DNA of 64,000 nt from Minisyncoccia bacterium (GTDB taxonomy: Bacteria; Patescibacteriota; Minisyncoccia; Phycocordibacterales; SBAW01), in assembly GCA_049997855.1 (NCBI GenBank), contig JBEKSG010000003.1, positions 4,154-68,153 on the forward strand, in the 5' to 3' direction. The notes beneath the pieces are model-generated. The model was given only the letters and a program-made list of their open reading frames with translations. It made no database searches and was not told the origin of the DNA. Both the position numbers and the translations under genes were made by a program. Positions 2,884-63,988 of the stretch are shown here, one piece after another; position 1 is the first letter of the stretch, and each line of letters starts with the position of its first letter.

Positions 2884-3624
2884 TCATTGTTTTCCTCCCT
2901 TCTTCCACTTCGTTTTTGTAAGAAATTGGGCGAATAAATCTTCTTTCAAGGGCACCACAAATTTATTCCATTTTCCCTTACTCTTCCGTTTGTGCCATAT
3001 CTTTTCTGCAACCCCGCGGATGACAACCAACGGCGTTTGTTCGCCACCCTCGCCCATTATTACTACTGCCGCAGCTGCCAAAGCATCCGCTACGTTTGCT
3101 TGCTCATATTGCAAAGGCCGTCCGAATACATCTTTGATTCCTCTATAATCCGAGAGAGGCTCAAACCCAGTCCACGCCAGCGCAAATCCAATTGCTCCAC
3201 GCCGCAGTGGCGTGCTTATCGAGTCGGTAATAATGACTCCTAAGCGAGACAGTTTATACTCTTGCATCAATTTTTTGCGCAACAAAGCTGCTGAACGTTG
3301 GGGGTTATGAGGCCAGAGAATATAGTGGCCGTTCCCGTTGCTTTCATCTATGCCTGCGGCACGGATAAGCACACCCTTGGTGATAGTAAAAGAAGATCCC
3401 CATTTTGGTTTTTCATTTAAATACAAAGAAGATTCCCGACGAGCGAGCGCTTCCTTTTTTATAGAACCTACACGCACACATCGGCCTTCATTGATACTTA
3501 CTACTTTAGAAGTAACAGCAATAATATCGCCATCTTTGGGCTTAAGAGACGAAGCAATAATTTTATGAACCAAATCGTCCTTTGGAGGCACTAAGACACC
3601 TATCTTTATTGGTTTGATATTCAC
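2884..3624 (-). CDS. CofE/FbiB-like gamma-glutamyl ligase family protein
   Basis: The 246 aa ORF matches the N-terminal pattern of F420-0:gamma-glutamyl ligase homologues (KDGDIIAVTSKVVSINEGR); it is embedded between folA and folB. Confidence 0.5.
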   Translation of the reverse strand: MNIKPIKIGVLVPPKDDLVHKIIASSLKPKDGDIIAVTSKVVSINEGRCVRVGSIKKEALARRESSLYLNEKPKWGSSFTITKGVLIRAAGIDESNGNGHYILWPHNPQRSAALLRKKLMQEYKLSRLGVIITDSISTPLRRGAIGFALAWTGFEPLSDYRGIKDVFGRPLQYEQANVADALAAAAVVIMGEGGEQTPLVVIRGVAEKIWHKRKSKGKWNKFVVPLKEDLFAQFLTKTKWKKGGKQ

Positions 3625-3637
3625 GAATGTATCTTAT

Positions 3638-4000
3638 CTAATTTTCTCTACTTCGAACAATAGTTACTCCCGGCACGCCGTTTTGCCACACTTCGGGTTT
3701 TTGGATTGTCACTTCAACTGTTTGTATGCGTTTGTCCTCCAGCACTTTGTGAGCAATTTCTTCGGCCAACGTTTCTATCAAAAACCTGCTGCTGCCTTTT
3801 ATCACCGCTCGGATTTTATCTTTTACTTCACTGTAATTTACTGTGTCAGCAAGATTGTCGCTTTGTGCCGCGTTGCTGGTGTCAACGCCAAGTTTGACCG
3901 ACAAGGCGAATTCCTGCTCAATGCGGCGCTCTTTTGCAAAACAGCCGTGCTTGCCGCGAAACACCAGGTTGTCGATGTGGATGTAATCCATGAGCCCCAT
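3638..4000 (-). CDS. folB: dihydroneopterin aldolase
   Basis: The 120 aa ORF has the FolB signature IHIDNLVFRGKHGCFAKERRIEQEF. Confidence 0.85.
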   Translation of the reverse strand: MGLMDYIHIDNLVFRGKHGCFAKERRIEQEFALSVKLGVDTSNAAQSDNLADTVNYSEVKDKIRAVIKGSSRFLIETLAEEIAHKVLEDKRIQTVEVTIQKPEVWQNGVPGVTIVRSREN

Positions 4001-4057
4001 ACTATACCAATAAAAAAGCCCGGGAATTACTCTAGAGGCCTTTTCTGCAATCCAAAT

Positions 4058-8699: not shown

Positions 8700-8728
8700 G
8701 CGCGGCCCTCAAAGGGCCGCGCTTTTTT
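8700..8728 (+). terminator. rho-independent terminator
   Basis: gcgcggccc-tcaaa-gggccgcgc followed by TTTTTT. Confidence 0.7.
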
Positions 8729-8745
8729 CTTTATCTATTTTTTCT

Positions 8746-13857: not shown

Positions 13858-15996
13858 TTACCACCCCCAATACCACCCCCAAGAGGAAGAAGCCTTAACC
13901 ACGACCCTTACCCACTGTGAAGATGGCAACCATCTGGCTGTGGGATATTGATTTGTTCTAGTAACCGGGAGGAAGTAGTACGTCCCGGCAGTTGTAGGTG
14001 TAAAGGTAAAGTTGAGCGGATTCTGCACGGCGGTGCCTACATCCGAGCCGGTTTCCAAACCGATGATTTCAGCGGCAGGAGAAGGAGGAATTTCGTTGAT
14101 GGAGTCCATGAGGAGCTGGTCGCCCGTGCCGGGAGTAAATGTTGCGTGGATGGTAGTCGATTGGCCGGTGTACAGGGTAGTTGCACCTGCCGAGATGGTC
14201 ATCGTGGGCGGAGCTGCCGGAGTAGTCGGGGTCGGAAACACCTTGGGCGAGCCAACGAGAAGCGTCATAACTGTCGGATCGCTTAGGTCTATGCCATAGG
14301 CATAGAGCGTGTGCGAAGCGGTCAGATACGATGCCGGCAATTGATACACGAATCCGTGATTGCCCGTGACATGCATGACACTATCCACATCAGGCCGTGA
14401 GGTGTTGGCAGGGATTGTGGCAACCAGTGTCCCGACACCCTTCGGGCCATCCGCATAGATGGCGACATTGACGGACGTGGAGGATGCATTGGGATCAAGC
14501 GACCATCCCGAGAGGACTCCTGCACTGCTTACAGAGTCAAAAAAACCGATAGGGGGGATGTTGTTCGGTGCAACGACGCTTACTGTAACTTGAGCGGTAT
14601 TGGAACCTTGTGCATTGGATGCAGTGAGGGTGTAAGTCGTCGTCTGCGACGGAGTAACTTGCACCGAAGTGCCGGTTACCGCGCCGATGCCGGATATGGA
14701 GAGCGACGTCGCTCCCGAAACAGACCATGAGAGCGTGATGCTTTGACCTTGGGTGACCGATGCGGGCGTTGAAACGAATGATGAGACGGTGGGAAGTGGA
14801 GGTGCGAGATTGGCAGAGCAATTAATACTTGGCAGGGTAACTCCCTTCCATGCCGCAACCGCTTGTTGCACGGCAGCCATCGGACCGCAGCCGAGCGCGA
14901 CAGACGGCTCGAGATCGTTGGAGAAGTTTGTCGTGTCTTGGTCGGAATGGATCCACTCGTTAAACTGGGTCAGGATGATGATTTCCGGATTATAGCTTAT
15001 GGCGGTGCTCCATTGCTTGTTGAAGGTAACCGCATAGTTGGAGGCCGTGCTCGAAGCATTTGTCGTGCCGTCGCGGCCTGCCAGCGTTGGGACACCGTCA
15101 TAGGTAGCAGGACAGCCAGCAGTAGTCCATCCGCAACCCGGATACGCTTGAGTCACGGTTATCGCCTCGACGCTGCCACTGCTATTGGAAGGCCGCGGAT
15201 TGCGGTCTTCCCAGCTCCAAATATCGCTGTTGCCCAAACCTTTTAGATACGGCTGTTCAAAAACCGACACGAACCTCACGGTAAAGCGCGAATCGTTCCA
15301 TGCCGGATTGATGACGCTTCCTTTAGCAGTAGGAATCCCGGTATACACAAGGAGCAGCGGTTTGCCGTTGAGTGAATAATAGATGTTGGGATATTGCGTG
15401 TACATCTGGTATGCGTAATCCGCTTCATTTTGGAGAATTGACTCACCGTTTAATTGGGGGAATTTCGTATTGATGACTTGGCTTTGGGTTATGCTGCCTT
15501 CGTCTTGCGCTGCCAGTGTTATCGCGATTCTCGGATACGGCTTGCCCTCATTTAAGAGGTTTTGATACTCGGTGAACAGAACGCTGGTATTTGTGCGCGA
15601 AATAGTTTCGGGCGATGTATTGCCCGCAACATAATTTGCAGCGCTATTGGTCCAGTCAAGGATGACGAAGTTTACGCCAAGATCGTTCAGCCATTCCGCA
15701 TGCTTGTCGATAATAGCCGTATTGGTCGAGGTGTAATCGCCGAGAAGCGGCGTGCTCCATGTGCCCCAATTAGGGTCAGTCCATAGGTTACCATTGCCTA
15801 GTGACGGGAACCATATTTCGTACTCCATCGCGATGCACTTTGATGTGCAGTTTGGCGTTACCGCGGAGAGTGCCACTGCCGCGCTCTGAGAAGCATTATT
15901 ACGTACATAAAATACACCGAACGCGGCGACTGCCAAGACAATCACAACAACTATTAAAAGCAACCATGTGTTGCGTCCCCATGTAAATTTCTTCAT
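13858..15996 (-). CDS. secreted multidomain protein with glycoside-hydrolase-like TIM-barrel region and Ig-like domains
   Basis: 712 aa with a signal anchor, an N-terminal region suggestive of a glycosyl hydrolase (DLGVNFVILDWTNS..., EW...QFNEW) and C-terminal beta-sandwich repeats. Confidence 0.4.
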   Translation of the reverse strand: MKKFTWGRNTWLLLIVVVIVLAVAAFGVFYVRNNASQSAAVALSAVTPNCTSKCIAMEYEIWFPSLGNGNLWTDPNWGTWSTPLLGDYTSTNTAIIDKHAEWLNDLGVNFVILDWTNSAANYVAGNTSPETISRTNTSVLFTEYQNLLNEGKPYPRIAITLAAQDEGSITQSQVINTKFPQLNGESILQNEADYAYQMYTQYPNIYYSLNGKPLLLVYTGIPTAKGSVINPAWNDSRFTVRFVSVFEQPYLKGLGNSDIWSWEDRNPRPSNSSGSVEAITVTQAYPGCGWTTAGCPATYDGVPTLAGRDGTTNASSTASNYAVTFNKQWSTAISYNPEIIILTQFNEWIHSDQDTTNFSNDLEPSVALGCGPMAAVQQAVAAWKGVTLPSINCSANLAPPLPTVSSFVSTPASVTQGQSITLSWSVSGATSLSISGIGAVTGTSVQVTPSQTTTYTLTASNAQGSNTAQVTVSVVAPNNIPPIGFFDSVSSAGVLSGWSLDPNASSTSVNVAIYADGPKGVGTLVATIPANTSRPDVDSVMHVTGNHGFVYQLPASYLTASHTLYAYGIDLSDPTVMTLLVGSPKVFPTPTTPAAPPTMTISAGATTLYTGQSTTIHATFTPGTGDQLLMDSINEIPPSPAAEIIGLETGSDVGTAVQNPLNFTFTPTTAGTYYFLPVTRTNQYPTARWLPSSQWVRVVVKASSSWGWYWGW

Positions 15997-21025: not shown

Positions 21026-21097
21026 GCTCCCGTCGTTCAATGGATAGGACGTATCCTTGCGGAGGATATGATGTAGGTTCGATTCCTACCGGGAGCA
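21026..21097 (+). tRNA. tRNA-Arg (anticodon GCG)
   Basis: Hand-folded 72 nt cloverleaf with anticodon loop TTGCGGA; its 3' end abuts the stop codon of the serine recombinase. Confidence 0.7.
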
Positions 21098-22669
21098 CAC
21101 TATAGGATTTTTGGAGTAGATTTCTTCAAAATCTGTTTGTTTCATTGTGTTTCTTACAGGTTCTAACCGTTCGTGAATACCTTGCACTTCGTGTGCTAGT
21201 GATTTCATAGGCAAGAGCGTTTTTTCCGTGTCCATAAAGAGTTCCTGGAGACTAAGCACGAGGTTCGAGCCGAGTGCGAGTAGGATGGCTTTTTGCTGGT
21301 TTTTCGGGCCTTTCTCAAACCTGTCTTTGGCTTGGGTCACAAACTCAAAGGCGCTTTGCATGTTGTCGGCCCAACTCGTGATACGCCCATCCATGTCGTT
21401 GAGTAGATCGTTGAGTCGCACTTTTTCTTTGAGGGCGGCGTCCTTCTTCTCGCGGTATTCTTCCTCGGTTAACTCTTCCCGGGCCCGCATCTCAAGATAC
21501 CGGTCTAATTTTCTTACGGTGTCATCGTATGCTTTGCGTTGCAAAAAAAGAGTAGCATCGCGTGTACGCGCTTCTTTCGTATTTTCCTGTTCGATCCATT
21601 TCATTGCCCATTGATGAAACTCATCGGGTATTTCCAGCTCATTGAGCCGTTTCAATCCCTGGTTGATGATATCTTTTTCTTTAACAGACTTCTGGCTGCA
21701 TTTCATTTGGCTACGTTTTGAACAATGGTAGTAAGTGTAGCGGTGCACGTTGCCATTTTTTTGCGTCTTGATCTTTTCCTCCGCTGTTATTGCCATGCCA
21801 CACTCTGCACAACTCATGGTGCCTGTAAAAGCAAAAGTGCGAGTTTTGGGCCGGGGCCGGCCTTTTCTACCGAGTAGCACTTGTACCTTGTCATACTCCT
21901 CCATCGTTATCATCGGCTCGTGTGCCCCTTGATACCACTCTCCACCCCACTTAAATGCCCCGTAGTAGAACGGATTGGCAAACATGTGATATACATTGCT
22001 CAGAGAGAGCTTTAACCCGCTTCTAACACGTAAACCCCACTGCTCGGTGGCCATTTCGTGTATTTGATGAGGTCTATATGCCCCGGTGAGCATCATGTCC
22101 CACATTTTGCGCACTAGGTCGTAACGCTCTGGATCTTTGTAGATATCGTTACTGCCTTTGCTTTTTATTTTACTGTTGAGGTAGCCGAGAGGAGGTTGCA
22201 CGGGGTACCAGCCCATCTCCGCTTTCTTTTTCATCCCACGGGTTACATTGACCGACAAGTCGCGCGAATACTGGTTGGCTACGCCAAGCTCCAGACTCAT
22301 CAAGAGCACGTTATCTTGGGGATAATAACTTTTATCAAAAACACGGATGTGTTGGATAACGCCTGTTTGGAGCATTTGGATTATGCCACCACCGTCGATA
22401 AAGTTGCGGGCAAGGCGGTCAAGTTTCCAACACAAGATACCCTGCGCCTCTCCCTTTGAGATACGCTCCAACATTTTGGCGAATATGGGGCGGCCGAGCG
22501 TCTTTGCTGAGCGGGACTCTTGAAGCACATCAATTATGGTCAGCCCTTCCTGGTCGGCAATTCTTTTTAGCTCATCAATTTGGGACTCGATTGAAAGAAC
22601 TTGCCGATCTTCCGACTCGGTAGATTTGCGGGCATACAAGATATATTTTATTTTCGTTTCCTTTTTCAT
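21086..22669 (-). CDS. large serine recombinase (resolvase/invertase domain + recombinase domain + zinc ribbon)
   Basis: N-terminal catalytic motif (YARKSTESEDRQ), a recombinase domain, a CAEC...YYHCSKR zinc ribbon and a C-terminal coiled coil; the start is placed at MKKETKIKY. Confidence 0.85.
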   Translation of the reverse strand: MKKETKIKYILYARKSTESEDRQVLSIESQIDELKRIADQEGLTIIDVLQESRSAKTLGRPIFAKMLERISKGEAQGILCWKLDRLARNFIDGGGIIQMLQTGVIQHIRVFDKSYYPQDNVLLMSLELGVANQYSRDLSVNVTRGMKKKAEMGWYPVQPPLGYLNSKIKSKGSNDIYKDPERYDLVRKMWDMMLTGAYRPHQIHEMATEQWGLRVRSGLKLSLSNVYHMFANPFYYGAFKWGGEWYQGAHEPMITMEEYDKVQVLLGRKGRPRPKTRTFAFTGTMSCAECGMAITAEEKIKTQKNGNVHRYTYYHCSKRSQMKCSQKSVKEKDIINQGLKRLNELEIPDEFHQWAMKWIEQENTKEARTRDATLFLQRKAYDDTVRKLDRYLEMRAREELTEEEYREKKDAALKEKVRLNDLLNDMDGRITSWADNMQSAFEFVTQAKDRFEKGPKNQQKAILLALGSNLVLSLQELFMDTEKTLLPMKSLAHEVQGIHERLEPVRNTMKQTDFEEIYSKNPIVCSR

Positions 22670-23034
22670 AGTAGTTTCGACGTCGAAACGCCGAACGGGC
22701 ACCCTTGTGTTGACCCACGCTTGCTCACGAGGTGAGTAGTTTGCGGCAAGGATGCCCGTACGGCCCACAAAAGGCACAAAAATGCCTCGTGAATACGAAC
22801 GCGGGTCAACATGGTAATTGTACTCCTCAAAGGATGAGTTGCAATTCGAGTTGCAATCCTATACCCCCTCGACTTCGGAGAAGTCGAGAAGTTAGTTTTA
22901 GTCTCCTTAACCATTCGTCTCATTAGTCTGGCCAATATGGCATCTATACTACTGGAGTATTTACCCACGACCTGCTGGAATTTTCTTCCAGTTGTACTGG
23001 AAATTTTAGCATTGTTAGTTTTAGTCATTATCAT
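22666..23034 (-). CDS. hypothetical basic protein (element-encoded)
   Basis: 122 aa ORF sharing ATGA start/stop overlap with the recombinase and overlapping the upstream gene, which suggests an operon. Confidence 0.25.
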   Translation of the reverse strand: MIMTKTNNAKISSTTGRKFQQVVGKYSSSIDAILARLMRRMVKETKTNFSTSPKSRGYRIATRIATHPLRSTITMLTRVRIHEAFLCLLWAVRASLPQTTHLVSKRGSTQGCPFGVSTSKLL

Positions 23035-24604: not shown

Positions 24605-24850
24605 ATAGAAGGTTGCAACGACCTCCTAAGCGTTGTACTGTTTCTTTGTACAACTGAATAGTGCGAAGGACCTAACCCGTCAGTAATGGCGGCAAGGTCG
24701 AAAAGTCTCACACCTGAATACTAACCCCCGTGTTAGCGACTCAGGTGTGAGCCATACCCCGAAAGAGGCATGGGGCCGCAAGGCCTAAAGCTAGCGCGGG
24801 GCTTAGTGCGTTTTAACCCCGCCGCTGGATTATTTGATAACGCCAGTGGT

Positions 24851-25993
24851 ATGAAAAGACTCTCGATACCAATTTTTATTATCCTCAGTTTTCTAATTGT
24901 TTCTCCCGCGTTCGCTACCTCCGGTGCGTGCTCGTATCACAGCGGCGTAAACTGCACTCTCGGCCCTGCCACGAATGGTGACGCGATTTGCAATGATGGC
25001 ACCGATAGTGCGACTAGCTACTATCTAACGCAGGAGTGCCAAGTAAACATCTGCGCACCGCAATTTGCCAGTACCACCTACCAGGCTTATGTAACCTCCA
25101 ACGCGTCTTGGCGCAGCAGTTTGAACACAATAATTAGCAGTCTCATCAGCTCCCTGCAAAGCGTGGTCGCGAGTGATCAAGATAGTGAGAAAGTAGCAGT
25201 CGCGGCACTCACACAGTCTTACAACGAGGCTATACAGCAGATTCAACAAGATGAAGATGCGGCAGAAGCAGAGTCTTGTGTCTCAGGCTGTCTTGGAGGT
25301 AATGCTTCTGCTGCACAGTCCGTTCAAAGTACCTATCAAGGCTACATAGCTGAAGCCACAGCCTCGTACAATGCGGCGGTAGCACAAGCGGAAGCGGGTG
25401 ATAATGCATCAGTTGTTCAAGCTTGCATCAATCTTTGGACAAGCACCCAGACTAAAATGACCACGGCCGAGTCATATTGCACCAACACCTACGGACCAAA
25501 CAGCGCACCGCTTCCTAGCAATTTACTTTCGTGTGCTTGCGGTAGTGGGGACACCCTCCAAAACGGTGAGTGCGTTAGCTATTTAAATGCTTGCCAGGAC
25601 ATTTATGGCCAGAGCGCTTTCGCAAACAACGACGGGTCTTGCGCTTGCCCGATAGGATTTAACCCCGACGCTACAAATCACACCTGTGATTATGTAGGAC
25701 AAACTGCTACGCCATCTACTCCTGCACCGGTAGCAATGCTCACGCCTGCTCCTGCGTCCGTCTCAGTCGCTCCAGTATCTCAACCTATCAGGAACACTAC
25801 AGCCAGCATTGCAGTCAAGCCAGAGCGAACAATAGAGCCTGCGAACAACACAGCGTTTCGGGTCCCAACGACCACTGCGGCTTCAAGCGTTCCTCCAGTA
25901 ATAAGTGACAACGCACAATCCCGGGCTTCTGTTTGGCAAACAATAGGCGGCTGGCTTTTGAAGCTCAATCCGTTTTCGTGGTTCACTCACTAA
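24851..25993 (+). CDS. secreted Cys-rich protein
   Basis: Signal peptide MKRLSIPIFIILSFLIVSPAFA, many Cys-containing segments and a Pro/Thr/Ala-rich C-terminal region. Confidence 0.4.
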   Translation: MKRLSIPIFIILSFLIVSPAFATSGACSYHSGVNCTLGPATNGDAICNDGTDSATSYYLTQECQVNICAPQFASTTYQAYVTSNASWRSSLNTIISSLISSLQSVVASDQDSEKVAVAALTQSYNEAIQQIQQDEDAAEAESCVSGCLGGNASAAQSVQSTYQGYIAEATASYNAAVAQAEAGDNASVVQACINLWTSTQTKMTTAESYCTNTYGPNSAPLPSNLLSCACGSGDTLQNGECVSYLNACQDIYGQSAFANNDGSCACPIGFNPDATNHTCDYVGQTATPSTPAPVAMLTPAPASVSVAPVSQPIRNTTASIAVKPERTIEPANNTAFRVPTTTAASSVPPVISDNAQSRASVWQTIGGWLLKLNPFSWFTH

Positions 25994-37626: not shown

Positions 37627-38007
37627 TTACTTCAATAACCCCAGCTGGAGTTTGAGTATATATTCAACGTCGGTAAGTTCGCTTGCAGAAATACTTCCTA
37701 TCCTCTTATCTAATCGCAACTTTGAAACAGTGGTAATTTGTTCCGCAACAGCTTTGCTTTTTTTGCCGAGCACGCTAACAATCGTTTGACTTGGATACAC
37801 AGGCATAATAGTGCCCGTAAGCGGCACTACTTGTATTTGTTCTGATAATTCGTTGGCATCATCATTACTTACCACGATGGCTGGACGTGTCTTTTGTATC
37901 TCGGTACCCATAGACCTATCAAACGATACCCACCAGATTTCGCCACGCAAAGGGTAGCCGTCTTTTTTGCTCATATATCGAGGTCGCCAATCATTGCCTC
38001 GCTCCAC
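37627..38007 (-). CDS. mazF: MazF/PemK-family toxin endoribonuclease
   Basis: PemK signature (GEIWWVSFDRSMGTEIQKTRPAIVVSND). Confidence 0.75.
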   Translation of the reverse strand: MERGNDWRPRYMSKKDGYPLRGEIWWVSFDRSMGTEIQKTRPAIVVSNDDANELSEQIQVVPLTGTIMPVYPSQTIVSVLGKKSKAVAEQITTVSKLRLDKRIGSISASELTDVEYILKLQLGLLK

Positions 38008-38204
38008 TCATGAGCCTCGCGGCAGTACTCTTTATCAGCTGCCATCGCTTTATATCCTTCACGCAACGCTTCCCGCGACAAAAGATGCGGCCGGGCCACA
38101 TCGCTTAAAAAGCGGCCGATATTCCCCCGCCCCACTTGCTTTTGCAGAGCACGATAAACATCCGCTTCGACAAGAATAGTCAACTTTTTTGTTGTGGTTG
38201 CCAT
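37971..38204 (-). CDS. antitoxin (RHH/MazE-like) of MazF pair
   Basis: Small ORF overlapping the mazF start; begins MATTTKKLTILVEADVYRALQ. Confidence 0.5.
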   Translation of the reverse strand: MATTTKKLTILVEADVYRALQKQVGRGNIGRFLSDVARPHLLSREALREGYKAMAADKEYCREAHEWSEAMIGDLDI

Positions 38205-38339
38205 ATACGTACAATTATACATACAATATATTTTGGTGCAAGCACCTCCGCGGCATAGCAAGGTGAAACCTTGATGTCTTAAATTGTGGATAAGAATGTG
38301 CGGACATAGTAACTATAGTAATATACTAAACCCATACTC

Positions 38340-40965
38340 ATGAAGGGCACAGCTGGCACTGCGGGGGGGGGTACGACGAGCACTGTCTGTAGCTCTCCTC
38401 TTTTGTAGTGCTCTCCTTCTTTTCTCTAACGCGATTCCAGCATCTGCCGCCATCTTTACCCGCCCCCTCTACCTCGGCACCAAAGGGAGTGACGTCTCTG
38501 CTCTCCAGCAGTTTCTTAAATCAAAAGGCTACTTTACCTATCCAACCATCACCGGCTACTTTGGTGCCGTTACGGTAAAAGCAGTAGAAGCCTATCAAAA
38601 AGCAAACAACCTTGAGCCGGTAGGCAACGTAGGACCCAAAACCCGTGCACTGCTCAATACCGCGCTCACCACTACTACCCCTGCATCCTCAACCCCCCCA
38701 ACCTCTACCACCACGCCAACCACCAGCACCACAACCATTCCCTGCATCCCTGGTTGGTGCACGCTGCCAGGTTACGCACCAGGGCAGTTTGTTGGGGGAG
38801 GAGGAGCTAATCGTGATATCACGCCACCGAGTGTCTCCCTTACTACACCCACCAGTGGCACCACCGTCGCAGGCCCGGTCACGCTTACCGCCTCTGCTTC
38901 TGACAATGTGGGGGTCACAAGCGTACAGTTCAATGTCGATGGTACAAGTATCGGGTCTCTCTCTTCTGCTCCGTACACCACTACATGGAACAGTGGGAGT
39001 GTTGCTGACGGTTCACATACCCTCACGGTCACAGCTCAAGATGCGGCAGGTAATACCACCACTAGTGCAGGCGTTGCTATTACCGTACGCAATACACCCC
39101 CTATTATTACCGCCATCGCCTCAAGCTCTATTGCTTCCACGACACAGACTATTACGTGGACTACTGATGAGCTTGCTACCTCGACCGTCTACTATGGCAC
39201 TACTACAAGCTATGGTAGTGCTTCATCTTCAGCCATCCTCACCACGAGCCACTCAATTACACTTACCGGTCTCACTGCCTCAACTACGTACAACTTTGTT
39301 GTTACCTCCGCAGACGCTTCAGGCAACATTGCCTCTTCCACCAACCAATCCTTTACCACTGCGGCCTACACCTATTACGTGGATAGTGTAAATGGTAGTG
39401 ATGCGAATCCTGGCACATCTCCGTCCTTGGCACTCAGAAACATCACAGCACTTCCTACCATCACAGCAGGGCAGGGTGTTGGATTGGCGTATGGGTCGCA
39501 TTGGAGACAGCAGCTTACTATCAATGCAGCGAACGCAACTGTTATTGGCTATCCTACAACATACAACTCAACCAATTTACCGATTCTTGATGCGTCAGAT
39601 GTCATACCCAATGCAAATTTTGTCGCGGCTACCGGAGGTAACACCGGCGCGTACTACACAAATAGTGCCCTTTCCTTTCTAAGCGCTGGTTCAGGAGCAG
39701 GATGGATCAATGTGTTTGAGACTGGCGGTCCGGGCGATTCCACTACAGGACGATTTCTGACGAATGTCGTTAGTGAAGCCTTAGTGGCGTCTACACCTTG
39801 TAGTTACTACGTTCCTGGCATATCTCAAGGATCTGCCGTCCCTGCAAGCGGAGTTATTTACCTTCATTCTTGCGATGATAGTTCGCCAATTACTAATGGA
39901 TATTTATATGAATTTAGCAATCGTGCCACCGCCCTTACTATGAACGGCTATGGAGGTAAGGTAAGCAACCTAGAGGGCCGCAAAAATTCCTCTGAAAGCG
40001 GCGCAATTGTTCTTTCCGGAGATGGTAACTCCTACATTGTAAATAACATAATCGCGCGCGATGGGAATGACCATGTGATGTTTGTGCCATCTGGTACGAC
40101 CATATCAAATTCACAATTCATTAATGCCTATTGGGGGCCAAACATCTTTAACAATTTACTGGTCGTTTATGACGCAAATGGAACCGGATTGCCTTTCAGT
40201 TCATCTAACAATATTTATCAACAAGACCAAAATATGAGCGATTCCGTTTATGGCGTTATTGCTTTGATGCAGCACACTAACGGCGGTACGAGTATTGGTA
40301 ACGTGACCTCTACTGGCGATTGGTTCATCGGAAAGAACGGTGCCATTATGACGGCCTTCGGTGTCAGCAATACTCCATCACTTATAATGAACAACAATTA
40401 CGCGAGCCAAGTTGCACATATGGTCTCGGTAACAACGTCGGTGGTTGACAATGGATCACAATTTGTAGCGAGTGGGGGTGATTTTCTAGAATACGCTGCC
40501 GCAAATCAGACAGTCACTCTTAATAACACTCTTATTTGTACAACTAATAGCCCATACGGCGGGCCGTTGAATATTGAGAACGCTGCAAACAGCACGCTTA
40601 ATATTAATGGCGGCGTAACGTATTTAGACACCGGAAAGGGCTGGAACGTAATCTCCGATAACAACGGCGAAGGCACCGCGAACGTGCATCTGAACATCAA
40701 CAACCATATCTTTGGTGGCCCAGGTCAATACTCAATGAACGCGTATGATTTCACTGGTAGCGGTGGAGTATTTACGGGCGGAACGGCAGGAAACGCAAAT
40801 TCCTATTCGACCGGCTTTGGATTCATGATCTTCAACAACGTGCAATATAACAGTCTTGCGGCATGGAAAGCGGCGGTTACCCCGCAAGACGCAGTGGCTG
40901 TCTCTATTGCACCAACTGTAGGGCAAAGTGCCTGCACACTGCCGACTATACCTACAGTAAATTAG
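38340..40965 (+). pseudogene. large cell-surface protein (signal peptide, peptidoglycan-binding domain, T/P-rich linker, Ig-like and FN3-like domains, right-handed beta-helix) disrupted by frameshift in G9 tract
   Basis: The ATG at 38340 is in frame +0 and is followed by a G9 run at 38363..38371. The long ORF continuing to 40965 is in frame +1 and has no start codon of its own until 38908. Removing one G yields MKGTAGTAGGVRRALSVALLFCSALLLFSNAIPASAAIF... (a signal peptide) fused to a PG_binding_1-like segment (LYLGTKGSDVSALQQFLKSKGYF). Confidence 0.6.
38363..38371 (+). repeat. homopolymeric G9 tract at 5' end of surface protein gene
   Basis: Direct count in the sequence (c-ggggggggg-t); candidate slipped-strand phase-variation site. 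Confidence 0.8.
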
Positions 40966-45075: not shown

Positions 45076-45116
45076 TCTCTTTTTTCTTATTTTACTGTGA
45101 TTGCTATACTGCATCT

Positions 45117-49416: not shown

Positions 49417-51516
49417 TCACGACAACTTATTCTCCAATCGAAATTTGGTAGGACGAATTTTAATTGCAAGTTGTAGATTCAATTCTTTCGCCAAAGCAAA
49501 ACAAAAATGACAAAGCCGCTTCGAGTCAAAATTAGTGAGTAGCCATAAGCCGTTTTTCAATTTTTTTCTAAGTTTTGCTTCATCACTAGATTCGAGAACG
49601 TCTTTTATTAATAACTGTCTGTCACCCCCATCGATAAAACTAAGGGTGCTTTCGGTCAAGACAAATGTTTTTGAATACAATTCAACTAGGATAACAAACA
49701 GTTCAGACCACGTCCCCCCTTCTTTGAATTTTTGGCCACCTAACGAATAACTTTCTGGCTTCGTGTATCTAAGATCACCATACTTTGCATAATTACTTGT
49801 GTTTAGTTCAGATTTATATTCTAGCTTTTCACCAAAAGAAGAGTGACGTAATTTATCTAGAGAAGACGGAGATTTAAAGAAATATTGATAATTGTTGAAA
49901 GTTGGATCTTGTCGTTGAGTCGCCATTGCAACACTAAGAAGATTCATGACTCTCTCGCTGTTTTTCTCAAATTCTTTTTTTATCTTTTCTAACGAACCCT
50001 CTTTTGTAGCCATTTCTTCGAGAATAATACCTTCTGGTATTAACACCCACAGCTTAAAGAGTGTCAACAAATGCAAAAGACCGGTACTAAACAAACTTAA
50101 TTCATCTAAGGAATAATTAGGTCGATTTTTCTTCAGTTTCTGCTTGAACCATTCGAGAAGTTTGAAACTTATCAACAAAGAGTGCGCACTAATTTGATTA
50201 TGAAAAATAGTCGTGTAATACGCATTATATATTTCAGCTTTTTTATTCTTTGCCTCAGATGGCCTCTCAAGAAAAAGTGACATGTACGCTTGGGCAGCTT
50301 TTTCAAGATCAATGATTTTTTCTTTTTTTACATTTCCATCGTTAGTGTATAATCCCCTTTTCCTTTGGTAAAAATATCCAAGGGAATTAAATTGGGCCTC
50401 GAGTTGTTTTTGTATATCATCTTCACTAATTAGGTCTCTATTGTTTACCGTCGATTGTGTGTTTGATGCTTTGATAATTGCCTCTTTTAGTTTTGGATCG
50501 GAAGATTCAATTATCCGCACCAACACGTGTCCGGTATTTTCTTCAATTTTCCCAAGTTGATAAACGTCTCTTATTGTACTCGCAGTTTGGCAACCGTTGA
50601 TTAAGGATGGATTTGTTAACTCAACAATTTCATTACCAACCTTGATTTGATAATTATCGCAGAGAATGGTAATTCCATTATTTAAGTAGATAAATGTTTC
50701 TATTGCTTCCTTGTCTAACAAAGTTTTCTTTATTTGATCGTTTATTTTATTTTCACCAAGGTACCCGCGGACATTAGCGTTAAATATGTTTGGTTTGTCC
50801 TCGACTAATTTAGCAATCTCGAATACGTCGACACGTACAACCTTTCCTTTTGAATGATTAATATCCGGTAGATCTAAAAAAGTTTTTGCACCAGCGCCCG
50901 TATCTTTAACAACTTTGATAGATACCTTACCCACAGGTTTCGTTGAGGGAGGTAATATCAATTCTGCTACGTCCTTTTCAGTAAGAATTTCATAGTTGAC
51001 CTGCTTATCGCTTTCATTTGAAAATCTTTCTAATTCCTCGTAGAGCGAAGCTTGCGGTCTTTTGCCATTAGTTAGAAAGAGAAGTTTTATTTTATCGATT
51101 TCCCCTGATTGAAAGGAGTTTCTGGCCGATTCTATACGAGGTTTGAGTTTAGGATTCAAAACATTTGTGGGAGCATCACCTAATACATAATTCCGAACAG
51201 TTTCGACCATTAAAGTTTTAGCTGTTTCGTCTAGCGAATTATTTGGGTTCTGTGCAAAATATTTTGACTGCACAATATAAAGAATATTATTTCCATTCTC
51301 GTCGACCTGGATGAAAATAGCATCAATCCCCTTATCGTTGCCGCCATCGGTTATCGCTTCTTCAACTTCTATCTCATCGAGCCCGTAAATATTTTGAAGA
51401 CAAAAAATTATGAAAGCTGTTGACGGCTGACAACTAAATTCTTTTGCCGTCTCTTGAACTCTTGCAGCTAGAGTGCTTTGAATACGTGGGTTTGACATAT
51501 TTTTAATAATACTCAA
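49417..51516 (-). CDS. AIPR-family abortive infection protein
   Basis: 699 aa with an AIPR-like core (IYLNNGITILCDNY...INGCQT); markedly AT-rich; begins 8 nt after the dnaN stop. Confidence 0.75.
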   Translation of the reverse strand: MSIIKNMSNPRIQSTLAARVQETAKEFSCQPSTAFIIFCLQNIYGLDEIEVEEAITDGGNDKGIDAIFIQVDENGNNILYIVQSKYFAQNPNNSLDETAKTLMVETVRNYVLGDAPTNVLNPKLKPRIESARNSFQSGEIDKIKLLFLTNGKRPQASLYEELERFSNESDKQVNYEILTEKDVAELILPPSTKPVGKVSIKVVKDTGAGAKTFLDLPDINHSKGKVVRVDVFEIAKLVEDKPNIFNANVRGYLGENKINDQIKKTLLDKEAIETFIYLNNGITILCDNYQIKVGNEIVELTNPSLINGCQTASTIRDVYQLGKIEENTGHVLVRIIESSDPKLKEAIIKASNTQSTVNNRDLISEDDIQKQLEAQFNSLGYFYQRKRGLYTNDGNVKKEKIIDLEKAAQAYMSLFLERPSEAKNKKAEIYNAYYTTIFHNQISAHSLLISFKLLEWFKQKLKKNRPNYSLDELSLFSTGLLHLLTLFKLWVLIPEGIILEEMATKEGSLEKIKKEFEKNSERVMNLLSVAMATQRQDPTFNNYQYFFKSPSSLDKLRHSSFGEKLEYKSELNTSNYAKYGDLRYTKPESYSLGGQKFKEGGTWSELFVILVELYSKTFVLTESTLSFIDGGDRQLLIKDVLESSDEAKLRKKLKNGLWLLTNFDSKRLCHFCFALAKELNLQLAIKIRPTKFRLENKLS

Positions 51517-51523
51517 GCTTAAA

Positions 51524-52621
51524 TTACCGGTTCATTGGCATGGCTAGGTAGAGGAAGCTCTCGTCGGCGGCATCTTTGATGAGGAGCGGTTTGCCTGCGC
51601 CGTTGGCGCGTATGCGCACGCTGTCTCCTGTGATTGCCTGCAAGCTGTCGGCGAGGTAGCGGCCGTTAAAGTTCATTGTGCAAGGCTCGCCCGATATGGT
51701 GGCGCGCACGGTTGAGATTTGCTCACCCACGTCCGGGTTGCGTGACGAAAGAAAGATTGCCTTTTTTGCCGGGTCTATCGTAAAAGTAACCTGCGCAAAC
51801 TTGTCGGCAAACACCGAGAGCGATTTGAGCGCCGCCGAGAAATCCTCGCGCAATACCACTGCCTCAGAAATAAATGACTTGGGGATGATTTGACGATAGT
51901 TAGGAAACGCGCCGTCGATAAGGCGGCTCGTGTAATACACGTCTCCCACGTGGGTGGAAATTTGGTTGTCGTTGTAATACAACTCAACCTCGACGTTTGC
52001 CGTCTCTACAATGCGCATGAGCTCGGCCGCGTTGCGCGCCGGCACAAGCAAATGTGCCACACTGCCGCCGGAGCGGAGCGGAATGCTCTTTTCGGCAAGC
52101 CGGAAGGAGTCGGTTGCTGCGGTGGTAACCTTGCCTGCTTCACCAAACAGCAGGACGCTCTGTTGCTCGGGTTTAATCGCCGAAGTCGAGGCACAGTAAG
52201 CCACACTCCTAATGGCGCGCGTGAGATCGCCTGATTTAACCGTAAACGAGCGCTCAGCCGACACGTGCGGTAAAATCGGGAAGTCGTCATGCAGGATGGT
52301 TTTGATCGAGGCCGACGCGCGCTCGGTTTCGATTTTAAACAACTCACCCACCAACGCCGCTGAAATATTTTTACCCCGTGCGTTCGACAAAAACCCAAGC
52401 AACACTCCTCCAGGCACAGCCGCAACGCCATCGTGTAAAACTTTTGCCGCAAAGGTTACCTCAACACCACACTCAAGGTTGGTGGCCCGCAGTACTATCC
52501 GCCCACCATCAGCTGTTATCAAAATACTCCCCAACACCGGCAGATTGGCTTTGCGCTCAACAAAACGGGCGGCAGTTGTCACTGCTTTAAGAAGTTGTTC
52601 GGTTGTGCATTCAAACTTCAT
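51524..52621 (-). CDS. dnaN: DNA polymerase III beta sliding clamp
   Basis: 365 aa with the three-domain clamp pattern, downstream of dnaA. Confidence 0.9.
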   Translation of the reverse strand: MKFECTTEQLLKAVTTAARFVERKANLPVLGSILITADGGRIVLRATNLECGVEVTFAAKVLHDGVAAVPGGVLLGFLSNARGKNISAALVGELFKIETERASASIKTILHDDFPILPHVSAERSFTVKSGDLTRAIRSVAYCASTSAIKPEQQSVLLFGEAGKVTTAATDSFRLAEKSIPLRSGGSVAHLLVPARNAAELMRIVETANVEVELYYNDNQISTHVGDVYYTSRLIDGAFPNYRQIIPKSFISEAVVLREDFSAALKSLSVFADKFAQVTFTIDPAKKAIFLSSRNPDVGEQISTVRATISGEPCTMNFNGRYLADSLQAITGDSVRIRANGAGKPLLIKDAADESFLYLAMPMNR

Positions 52622-59819: not shown

Positions 59820-61679
59820 TTATTGTACCGCGTTTGGCGGAGTTCCCGATTGTGCATCGGCGAGGTCTGCGCGCTGTTTGCGCAAGGCCAGTACCTGGCT
59901 CGGGTCGGAGGTAATAATCTGATCTTCGGTGTAAGAGGCTATTACTTTGATGGCCACATGTTTGAGCCCGGCAAAAAATATTCCCTCCCCCACGTCGCTC
60001 TCGAGGAGCAAAAACTTTTCTTCGTCCGAGAGGTTAAAGGTTTTTTGCAGATTGTCGATGGTGGTCGGCGATTGCTTGAGCAAAATTTGTATCGATGAGT
60101 TGGTAATCATCGGCAAACCGTACGGCGACTTTAAAAAGTCATCGACGTCTTGGGTGATGGTTGCAAGGCCGAGATAATATTTACGGCCGCGCTTTGCCAT
60201 GCTGTAAAGAAAGCTCGCCGTGTCGTCGCTTTTCATCATCCACCACGCCTCGTCAATAACCAGAAGGCGCTTTTTAAGATTTTTGCGGACCGTGTTCCAT
60301 ATAAAGTGCGTGATGATGTACATGGCCACAGGCTTCAAGTCATCCTCCATGTCGCGCACCGAGAAGACGACGAACTTTTTGTTGATATCGACGTTGGTTG
60401 GTTGGTTGATAAATCCGCTCCACGTGCCCTTGGTATATTTTGAGAGGCGTTGTACCAAACTCTCACTCCCCTCCATTCCGGCCAACACAAGCTCAAAGTC
60501 GGAGAGGAGCGGCGGCTCTATCTCGGCAAAGTTGCTGTCGACCGTAATATCCTTGAGCGCGTACGTTTCGGTGATAGCGCGGTCGATGATGGCATCTTCC
60601 TCGGGCGTGAGACCACCAAGCATGATGCGAAAGAGGCCCACGAGCGCCACGATGTTGCTGCGCAAGATGTCGGCCGCGCTTTCGTCCTCGCGCGGTGGCG
60701 CCAAGTCAAACGGGTTAATGTGGTGTTCGGAGTTGAGAGAAATGTTAAAGTAGCGCCCGCCGACCGCTTGCGCCAAAAACTCGTACTCGCGCTCCGGATC
60801 GATAACGATAACCTCGGTATCAAACATAAGCGTGCGCAAAATCTCAAGCTTGGTCGCGTAGCTTTTGCCGGAGCCCGACTTGGCAAAAATGACCGAGTTG
60901 TAGTTTTCCAAGCTAAACCGGTCAAACAACACCAGGCTGGCATTGTGGCGGTTAACGCCGTAGAGGATGCCTTTGTCGCTCGTGAGGTCGAACGAAACAA
61001 ACGGGAAGATTGAAGAGAGGGGCGAGGAATTTAATTTTGAGTTGACGTTGAGTTCGTCGAGACCGATGGGCAACACGCTTTTAAAACCCTGCTCCTGCTG
61101 GAAGAGCGCCGGTTTGACATACACAAGCCTGCTCTCGAGCATCGACTTAATCTCGCTCTCGGCCTTGTCCAAATCCTCGGCGGTTTTGTCATAGATGGTG
61201 ATATATACGCCGACATCGAAAAGTTTTTCCTGCGCCTGTTGGAGCTGGTCGCGCAAGTTCTCGAGGTCTTGGTAGGCGGTGTCGAGCACCGGGTCGCGCA
61301 CCATGCCCTTTTCTTCTCGCACCATAATCTGGCTTTGCACCTCGGCCACCTTTTTTTGGAATTTTTTGAGCATGTCTGCCGAATCGAGCGGATGGATAAA
61401 AATGGAAATATCAAGCACGCGGTCGAGATTGATGACAGGCGCAAACCAGCTGTCGGTGAGGATGCGCGGGTATGACATGACAAAAAACGTGCGCGCGATT
61501 TTGTCGCCCAGGTTTATCTCGCGCGGCGTTATCTTAAGCGCGGAGGGCGCGATGACATCTTGAAGCTCGAGCACGCCCTCTTTGTATATTTGCTCGGGCA
61601 AAATGGGCGCCACCGGCACGGCGGCCGGAGTTTGTTTTGTCTTTAAAAAGTCGAGGAGTGCCATAGTGTTATTGGGCAA
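59820..61679 (-). CDS. VirB4/TraC-family type IV secretion ATPase
   Basis: Walker A (FAKSGSGKS), Walker B (LVIDEAW) and a Gram-positive-type VirB4 N-terminal domain. Confidence 0.85.
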   Translation of the reverse strand: MPNNTMALLDFLKTKQTPAAVPVAPILPEQIYKEGVLELQDVIAPSALKITPREINLGDKIARTFFVMSYPRILTDSWFAPVINLDRVLDISIFIHPLDSADMLKKFQKKVAEVQSQIMVREEKGMVRDPVLDTAYQDLENLRDQLQQAQEKLFDVGVYITIYDKTAEDLDKAESEIKSMLESRLVYVKPALFQQEQGFKSVLPIGLDELNVNSKLNSSPLSSIFPFVSFDLTSDKGILYGVNRHNASLVLFDRFSLENYNSVIFAKSGSGKSYATKLEILRTLMFDTEVIVIDPEREYEFLAQAVGGRYFNISLNSEHHINPFDLAPPREDESAADILRSNIVALVGLFRIMLGGLTPEEDAIIDRAITETYALKDITVDSNFAEIEPPLLSDFELVLAGMEGSESLVQRLSKYTKGTWSGFINQPTNVDINKKFVVFSVRDMEDDLKPVAMYIITHFIWNTVRKNLKKRLLVIDEAWWMMKSDDTASFLYSMAKRGRKYYLGLATITQDVDDFLKSPYGLPMITNSSIQILLKQSPTTIDNLQKTFNLSDEEKFLLLESDVGEGIFFAGLKHVAIKVIASYTEDQIITSDPSQVLALRKQRADLADAQSGTPPNAVQ

Positions 61680-63505: not shown

Positions 63506-63517
63506 ATGATCATTATA

Positions 63518-63988
63518 CTACTTCCCTTCAACTTTAAACTCACCCTCATTGTTGGTGCCGCCGACATCTTTAGGGATGTCTTTAACTTGTTCTTCGAGCT
63601 TGGTAATTTTCTCGAGAGCTTTTTTAAGTTGTTTGGCGGCTAGGCCCGCTCGTGTCCTTTCCGCTCTTTCTGCGGGATCATTCATGTTGAGCGTTTTATC
63701 ATCTCGAATTTTTTCCTGCTCTTCTAGGGAGTCTTCAATTTCTTTCTTCATCTTTTTCGCCGAACCTAAATTGACATTGAAAGTTGTGCCATGAACTGGC
63801 TTAACGGCGGAACCAAGCGTTTTTAGATCGACATGGAGCGTTTGGAGCTGTGTATGGAGCTCTCCTAGTTTTTTAAGTTGCTCCTTTGACTCGCCCAAGG
63901 GCGCTTTTGTGGACGTCTCGTTCCACTTACGTTCGAGTGTCTCCTTTTCCGTTCTGTTGTATTTAAGACTTTCCTTAATTGCCTTCAT
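63518..63988 (-). CDS. coiled-coil protein (may extend beyond window)
   Basis: Charged heptad-like sequence. Confidence 0.3.
   Translation of the reverse strand: MKAIKESLKYNRTEKETLERKWNETSTKAPLGESKEQLKKLGELHTQLQTLHVDLKTLGSAVKPVHGTTFNVNLGSAKKMKKEIEDSLEEQEKIRDDKTLNMNDPAERAERTRAGLAAKQLKKALEKITKLEEQVKDIPKDVGGTNNEGEFKVEGK

Follow-up and report, generated by a model that had tools for sequence, protein, structure and literature searches.

Is a gene that is thrown out of frame by a run of nine guanines a dead gene, or is it a gene that can be switched on again? This question is raised by a gene for a large predicted surface protein at positions 38340-40965 of a 64-kb stretch of DNA (hereafter the window) from a Parcubacteria/Minisyncoccia bacterium of the Candidate Phyla Radiation (CPR). 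The window is part of a 258-kb metagenome contig of the Joint Genome Institute (JGI; 3300037843, Ga0427918_0000070). In the assembled sequence, the start codon and the long open reading frame (ORF) of this gene lie in different frames on either side of a poly-G tract. Comparison with related loci indicates that the gene is probably a simple-sequence-repeat (SSR) contingency locus, i.e. a gene subject to phase variation at the DNA level.

All features of the surface-protein gene lie on the forward (+) strand. The ATG start codon (38340-38342) is followed, beginning 23 nt after it, by a G9 homopolymer (38363-38371), which is the proposed hypermutable tract, in the context ...TATACTAAACCCATACTC ATG AAG GGC ACA GCT GGC ACT GC-GGGGGGGGG-TACGACGAGC... 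In the G9 state, the ATG frame (frame 0, 38340-38408) encodes the peptide MKGTAGTAGGGTTSTVCSSPLL with 22 sense codons, not the 24 reported in the initial annotation, before it ends at TAG (38406-38408). The main open frame lies in +1 relative to the ATG and is bounded on its 5′ side by TGA (38341-38343). It extends over 38344-40965, with 873 open codons followed by TAA (40963-40965). The third reading frame of the gene is full of stops. The earliest ATG, GTG or TTG of the long frame is the GTG at 38908, as had been noted before, and a product initiated there would have neither the signal peptide nor the peptidoglycan-binding domain. Deletion of one G fuses the ATG to both of these regions, as was first proposed, and gives a protein of 874 amino acids (aa) with the N-terminus MKGTAGTAGGVRRALSVALLFCSALLLFSNAIPASA|AIF, not the 875 aa originally given for it. 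A G8 tract joins the frames into the 874-aa product and a G11 tract into one of 875 aa, G9 leads to termination after 22 codons, and gain or loss of a single unit toggles the gene between a full-length ORF and early termination.

Contingency loci carry a long G/C mononucleotide run (about 7 or more) in the promoter or the 5′ coding region, and the G9 tract is of this kind. No other homopolymer of the window is as long, and no other G/C run there exceeds 7. Counts of G/C runs in the window drop about 5.6-fold with each extra base, and only 0.036 runs of at least 9 are expected per 64 kb. In the related tract-bearing loci that we fetched, the poly-G tract is in each case the sole G/C run of at least 8; the tract is over-represented against background in the window and in these loci alike. 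The second-longest G/C run of the window, a C7 run (38693-38699), lies in the Thr/Pro-rich linker region of the same gene and is not conserved, being absent from the related locus L003. An assembly of SRR12951267 in Logan, made with an independent assembler, is 100% identical over 6.7 kb and likewise has G9.

Six diverged loci carry a poly-G tract at the same site, which lies in the n-region of the signal peptide and 17-24 nt downstream of the ATG. The lengths of these tracts are G8, G8, G9, G9, G9 and G10. The gene is out of frame (OFF) in three of them: in the window; in L003 (JGI Ga0181520_10000085, identical to L009 in a Bin Chicken metagenome-assembled genome (MAG)), with ATG at 3997, G9 at 4020-4028 and the main ORF in the +1 frame; and in L008 (Paceibacterota MAG DATKGU010000004.1), with ATG at 3238 and G9 at 3261-3269. 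Two loci with G8 are in frame (ON). These are L011 (ENA ERZ25039529; ATG at 4001), the product of which begins with MHKSVAGGVLV, and L014 (ENA ERZ27294217, k119_547333), in which TATACT, 6 nt, ATGATGCAGAAACAGCTGC and G8 follow one another. The G10 tract of L012 (Logan SRR31245132) is out of frame with the adjacent ATGs, and the state of this locus is ambiguous. In all six loci, only 8 or 11 G's link the ATG to the main frame. The ON and OFF states are thus both seen at the homologous tract, in different lineages rather than in strains of one species. The slipped-strand switch that the initial annotation had suggested gains support from this recurrence of the tract at one codon position with both states, together with the purifying selection on OFF alleles described below.

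The locus L003 is syntenic with the window (polA, the surface-protein gene, tsaE and a gene for a pilB-like ATPase). The PolA proteins of L003 and the window share 89% identity, and L003 therefore represents a related but distinct lineage. The protein of L014 has the same module of signal peptide, peptidoglycan-binding domain and Big_7 domain, and its C-terminus is a glycoside hydrolase family 5 (GH5) cellulase instead of a beta-helix. In orthologues lacking the tract, such as L004, translation can start from an ordinary ATG in the main frame, and the corresponding position holds a short, stable G4 (AGC GGGG CT). The frame-0 tails are not conserved, with 29 aa in L003 and 32 aa in L008. Both G8 and G9 occur in contigs with short-read (MEGAHIT-style) names, k119_ and k141_, and the length difference is therefore independent of the sequencing platform.

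Further searches and candidates added no tract-bearing locus to the six. A search for near-identical strains with other tract lengths, made with a degenerate pattern of the signal-peptide codons, gave zero matches in metagenome and genome contig collections, which do not contain the source contig either, and a protein search with the N-terminal module returned mostly short peptidoglycan-binding fragments without tracts. P0033 was uninformative, its gene being cut by a contig end. P0008 (L013), considered as an N-terminally truncated tract locus, was rejected, as its upstream start is intact and a tract is absent, and its truncation is an annotation choice. In L012 (743-900), two start options in different frames lie 5′ of the G10 tract, ATGCATATG on one side and a main-frame GTG or a far-upstream ATG on the other, and several tract lengths might therefore give a product at this locus. 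In L011, uvrB is split into two ORFs at about 8713-8738 by the insertion of a 26-nt perfect palindrome (aactcggaggtgtcacctccgagttt), removal of which restores uvrB ...RPVTGGQVQDFL... This insertion accounts for the split, and long-read homopolymer errors in L011 were rejected as its cause. Similar hairpins (cttgggagttcaactcccaag) occur in intergenic DNA of L008 and L011, and the palindrome may represent a very small mobile element or have arisen as an artefact of assembly.

The divergence between the window and L003, both of which have G9, allowed us to examine selection on the OFF alleles. Over 176 aligned codons located 5′ of the annotated GTG start, the ratio of nonsynonymous to synonymous substitution rates (dN/dS) was 0.17 with a synonymous divergence (dS) of 0.67. 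Over 180 aligned codons of the Ig-like and FN3-like domains, it was 0.11 with a dS of 1.26. For comparison, the neighbouring PolA gave 0.09 with a dS of 0.74 (794 aligned codons). Overall, the surface-protein gene showed dN/dS of 0.11-0.19 at dS of 0.6-1.3. The 2.6-kb frames of the window and L003 are free of stops, and the ORFs are intact in all three G9 lineages. Neither a dN/dS near 1 nor further disabling mutations, as expected of a pseudogene, were found. The low dN/dS and the stop-free frames therefore indicate that the protein was expressed and selected while these lineages diverged, and this applies to its signal peptide and anchor as well. The OFF alleles fit a reversible or leaky OFF state, and not decay. 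An orthologue in L005 (1061-1300) has an in-frame TAG in the peptidoglycan-binding domain (AGF*TYPTITGYFG) and a frameshift downstream of it. This orthologue, with both a nonsense codon and a frameshift, looks like a genuine pseudogene, and true inactivation thus also occurs in the family.

These results suggest the following course of events. An mRNA with a short leader or none would be translated from ATG 38340, and the G-run 23 nt downstream would code for Gly-Gly in the n-region of the signal peptide. Slipped-strand mispairing during replication would add or remove G's. With 8 or 11 G's the ATG would be joined to the precursor (874 aa with G8) and the gene would be ON, and with the 9 G's of this assembly translation would end after 22 codons, so that the exported protein would not be made. 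The sequenced population would accordingly be mostly OFF. The product would be a Sec-exported peptidoglycan binder, in which Ig-like and FN3-like spacers carry a C-terminal beta-helix of the lyase, hydrolase or tailspike type. Its role is probably an interaction with surface glycans of other cells, which may be host cells given that the organism is a Parcubacteria/Minisyncoccia bacterium. The switching and its rate are inferred, as are the leaderless start and the part that the protein would play in interactions between cells or with a host.

The choice of the start codon is central to this scheme. A -10-like hexamer, TATACT (38322-38327), lies 12 nt upstream of ATG 38340, without a Shine-Dalgarno (SD) sequence, and it is conserved in L003, L008 and L014. 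Among 38 genes of the window starting with ATG, 17 have a TANNNT hexamer 4-14 nt upstream, most often at 6 nt (background 11%), and four have an SD-like 4-mer (background 9.5%). Examples of a TATACT- or TATAAT-like hexamer about 6 nt 5′ of an ATG are found at 13997-14021, 45092-45116 and 63506-63530. This distribution suggests that leaderless or very short-leader mRNAs are widespread among the genes of the window. A generic sigma-70 scan called no promoter at 38322 (the nearest call was at 38198-38227), and the argument for a -10 box and a leaderless start at this position is thus based on the window-wide hexamer pattern and on conservation. The block TATACTAA..C.TAC.C-ATGAAGGGCACA is conserved in L003 and L008 despite their differing signal peptides. 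The scarcity of SD sequences and the presence of -10-like boxes near ATGs favour a 5′-proximal ATG as the start. Together with the conserved leader, the in-frame position of the ATG in L011 and L014 supports ATG 38340 as the true start, in preference to a CTG at 38359.

Initiation at this CTG would nevertheless remove the need for any switch, and we considered it together with the other explanations of the G9 allele. The CTG lies in the main frame before CGG GGG GGG GTA, so that fMet-Arg-Gly-Gly-Val-Arg-Arg would precede the signal peptide, G9 would be in frame and the ATG would be irrelevant. All three G9 loci share the CTG, the n-region would then have 7 aa and thus the length seen in orthologues, and an AAGGG at 38342-38346 is weakly SD-like. 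However, CTG is a very poor bacterial initiator, the genome does not use SD sequences, its leaderless-looking starts need a 5′-terminal AUG, and L012 has CAG in place of the CTG. The conserved ATG and -10 box would also be left unexplained, and in L011 and L014 the protein is demonstrably read in the frame of the ATG. We therefore regard this start as very improbable, and other non-canonical starts in the main frame as unlikely too. A recently fixed inactivating frameshift, which would make the gene a pseudogene heading for decay with no switching, is slightly less improbable. It would agree with the damaged orthologue of L005 and with the records of the window allele, none of which has the gene in frame. 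Yet the 873-codon frame is kept free of stops in three G9 lineages, the selection between two of them is purifying, and the frame is disrupted at this tract in each case and at no other point; a separate very recent event in each lineage would be required, and such a series of events would be compatible with the data. It is also quite improbable that the true tract is G8, with an intact gene, and that G9 results from a sequencing or assembly error. Homopolymers are the commonest site of indel errors, G9 is known from assembled sequence, and the JGI, Logan and NCBI MAG records of the window allele perhaps stem from the same reads. On the other side, G9 was obtained by two different assemblers, lineages from other projects gave G9 (two) and G10 (one) while a comparable short-read assembly calls G8, and the other long genes of the window are intact, with runs of up to T8 showing no visible breaks.

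Programmed recoding is a rather improbable explanation as well, and it would leave the gene never truly off. In this case, G9 would be the normal genotype, decoded through slippage of RNA polymerase (yielding mRNAs with 8 or 11 G's) or through +1 ribosomal slippage of tRNA-Gly on GGG GGG. Runs of at least nine identical bases can cause transcriptional slippage, and the occurrence of G9 with the same +1 offset in three diverged lineages, which share a strongly conserved leader (ATGAAGGGCACA, 6 nt, ACTGC, G9, T), would follow naturally, as would the purifying selection on "OFF" alleles and the fact that ON copies of the three G9 alleles were not found in protein searches. However, slippage is best documented for A/T runs, and the in-frame G8 of L011 and L014 and the G10 of L012 show that an out-of-frame layout is not obligatory. 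If lengths of 8-10 are about equally likely, three G9 tracts in six lineages are statistically unremarkable. A programmed +1 ribosomal frameshift of the prfB type is disfavoured by these loci and by the sequence around the tract, where frame 0 has no stop or rare codon after the run and no SD-like stimulator is present. RNA structure was rejected as a recoding stimulator, since the structure around the tract was not significant (z = -0.75) and was supported by 0 compensatory pairs. Several points also weigh against a contingency locus. The tract lengths come from assembled sequences, and phase variation is defined by variation in length among the cells of one population. The tract is exactly G9 in three of the six lineages, and the protein searches gave no ON version (G8 or G11) of the alleles in the window, in L003 or in L008. 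One sample may underlie all three records of the window allele, and the same holds for L003 and L009. The G8 of L011 comes from a contig with a long-read-style name, although its uvrB split is not a homopolymer error, and L012 is readable from an in-frame upstream GTG or ATG, which makes its state ambiguous. With these points taken into account, slipped-strand phase variation remains the probable explanation of the locus.

The protein encoded in the main frame has the hallmarks of a secreted, cell-wall-associated protein. The remainder of the signal peptide 3′ of the tract (VRRALSVALLFCSALLLFSNAIPASA; 38371-38448) was called by inspection, with an A-S-A cleavage motif ending at 38448, and orthologues carry an equivalent N-terminal signal peptide. 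It is followed by a peptidoglycan-binding domain, PG_binding_1 (aa 48-104, 38485-38655; Pfam PF01471, E-value 3e-15), which scored 56.6 bits against a gathering threshold of 23. Next are a bacterial Ig-like domain, Big_7 (aa 162-229, 38827-39030; PF17957, E-value 2e-21), and an FN3-like beta-sandwich similar to the N-terminal domain of purple acid phosphatases (aa 253-339, 39100-39360; PF16656, E-value 1e-6), for which the fn3 families stayed below their cutoffs. The C-terminal 534 aa (39361-40962) showed no family match in Pfam or NCBIfam searches. This region was modelled confidently from a 26-sequence alignment as a right-handed parallel beta-helix, with a mean predicted local distance difference test score (pLDDT) of 89.9 and a predicted template modelling score (pTM) of 0.91, and the model has the fold of the pectin-lyase-like superfamily. 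The domain sketch in the initial annotation was thus correct at the level of folds. Beta-helix lyases and hydrolases, tailspike depolymerases and adhesins of known structure (PDB 3vst, 7w1c, 6kfn, 7chu, 8egr and 3zpp) showed 8-15% identity and a best TM-score of 0.55; the domain resembles these polysaccharide lyases, tailspikes and adhesins by its modelled fold and is assigned to no sequence family. Invariant acidic and His residues in the beta-helix alignment are only suggestive of catalysis. The combination of signal peptide, PG_binding_1, Big_7, FN3-like domain and beta-helix points to a surface or niche-facing function.

The homology search recovered intact orthologues of 866-917 aa from other Parcubacteria. 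They share the domain order of the window protein, begin with an ordinary signal peptide and are homologous to the main frame along its full length. Between the window and L003, the N-terminal halves of the proteins have about 80% identity. The beta-helix (39361-40962 in the window, 5000-6574 in L003) has 47% amino acid identity, and its synonymous sites are saturated (proportion of synonymous differences, pS, 0.81). Compared with the 89% identity of PolA, such divergence is what a surface or receptor-binding module would be expected to show, and it points to diversifying selection or cassette exchange at the beta-helix head. Nearly all family members end with the motif A-C-T-L-P-T-I-P-T-V-N (40930-40962 in the window; P0004-P0013, P0123, P0124 and others), with or without the N-terminal Ig, FN3 and peptidoglycan-binding modules. 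The motif may be a sorting, anchoring or processing signal.

In public records, the gene appears in a shortened form. The JGI annotation uses the GTG at 38908-38910 as the start of a 685-aa product (P0001), which lacks the signal peptide, the peptidoglycan-binding domain and the first part of Big_7. A protein at least 90% identical to it in an NCBI MAG labelled "Minisyncoccia bacterium" is annotated with 715 aa and is also truncated; for this protein (P0121) no encoding contig is on record and the tract is unreadable. The gene of L009 is annotated in NCBI as a truncated 681-aa protein, and the NCBI start of the L008 protein is a GTG inside the signal peptide. Automatic annotation has thus truncated genes of this family to products of 685, 715, 681 and 936 aa in JGI and NCBI records. 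Orthologues align with the +1 frame of the window from the signal peptide onwards, and on this alignment evidence the public 685-aa call is therefore a truncation and the sequence 5′ of GTG 38908 is real coding sequence. Such truncation removes the signal peptide and the anchor domain, and surveys of CPR surface proteomes will miss proteins of this kind.

Several other features of the window were observed. A gene for a PemK/MazF toxin and a small upstream ORF (putative antitoxin) are located at 37627-38261 on the reverse (-) strand, between polA and the surface-protein gene. In L003, polA directly abuts the surface-protein gene, with 32 nt between the start codons. Therefore, the toxin-antitoxin pair of the window is an insertion, or L003 has suffered a deletion. 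A LOOT RNA (Rfam RF03000; 68.5 bits, gathering score 46.4) was detected at 24669-24786 (+), where it overlaps the start of an ORF at 24770-25993. A large serine recombinase with Resolvase, Recombinase and Zn_ribbon domains is encoded at 21086-22777 (-), and its gene overlaps the end of a tRNA gene (21026-21097); this overlap may mark the edge of an integrated element. An AIPR (abortive-infection-type) gene at 49417-51516 (-) lies in the stretch of the window with the lowest GC content (50001-52000; 0.40 compared with about 0.50), and may be a horizontally acquired defence gene. A TraG/VirD4-like P-loop ATPase, i.e. a coupling protein of conjugation or type IV secretion, is encoded at 59820-61679 (-).

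Very little is known about how ultra-small CPR bacteria, which encode few regulators, regulate the surface proteins used for attachment or attack. The conservation of a hypermutable tract among exported, glycan-active proteins with a peptidoglycan anchor suggests that genes of this family are switched stochastically, as happens in pathogens with small genomes. As a tentative and rather doubtful generalisation, CPR bacteria (Patescibacteria) might use hypermutable contingency loci in the form of a cassette, in which a leaderless promoter, ATG, poly-G tract, signal peptide and peptidoglycan-binding anchor are combined with interchangeable glycan-active heads (beta-helix or GH5 cellulase). If true, the cassette would give episymbionts a population-level on/off bet-hedging of proteins that interact with the host surface. 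In a stronger variant, the recurrent G9 would be decoded by slippage of the polymerase or the ribosome, and expression would be tuned and not switched. In the literature that we searched, SSR on/off switching was not reported for CPR/Patescibacteria; the mechanism is already known, and the phylum may be new for it.

The initial annotation regarded a poly-G switch as not expected in a small-genome lineage. This argument is unsound because contingency loci are commonest in small host-associated genomes, being typical of Haemophilus, Neisseria, Campylobacter, Helicobacter and Mycoplasma. Frameshifted genes can also be rescued by transcriptional slippage, as in insertion sequence elements, in genes of the dnaX type and at poly(A) tracts of insect endosymbionts. 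These cases resemble the present one in having nine identical bases, a reduced genome and a conserved gene that is out of frame in the DNA. However, they involve A/T runs and a fixed out-of-frame state, whereas here the run consists of G's and related loci are directly in frame. A closer parallel within CPR bacteria, and the nearest that we found in the literature searched, is the hypervariable PTD-repeat gene of a Gracilibacterium, for which slipped-strand mispairing has been discussed (Sieber et al. 2019, PMC6851277). Its product is likewise a probable extracellular protein of host interaction, but the locus is an in-frame array of 9-nt repeats that alters protein length and sequence, and not a frameshifting on/off homopolymer. 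In Listeria monocytogenes, inlA carries a 5′ poly(A) tract, and homopolymeric tracts have been described as general devices for 5′ gene inactivation (Orsi et al. 2010, PMC2831843). As in the window, the homopolymer of inlA is located a few codons after the start of a gene for a cell-wall-associated surface protein and is reversible in principle. The inlA frameshift peptide has 8 aa compared with 22 aa here, and the switching frequency was measured for the poly(A) tract of inlA, whereas the poly(G) tract is known from sequence alone. The closest architecture is that of the poly-G tracts within the ORFs of the Neisseria contingency loci hmbR and hpuAB (PMC3786947) and of the G/C tracts of Campylobacter contingency loci (PMC8355987). 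In the loci of Neisseria, Haemophilus, Campylobacter and Helicobacter, as in those described here, a tract of 8-10 G's lies in the 5′ coding region and its length toggles between a full-length product and a premature stop. The product is surface-exposed, the gene evolves fast, and the site of the tract is conserved while its length varies among lineages. The present locus differs in that it belongs to an uncultured CPR bacterium from an environmental metagenome and not to an animal pathogen, with switching inferred from sequences. It also differs in the position of the tract, which lies in the signal-peptide n-region of a leaderless-type gene, and in the joining of one module of leader, tract and export signal to differing glycan-active C-terminal domains, either a beta-helix or a GH5 cellulase.

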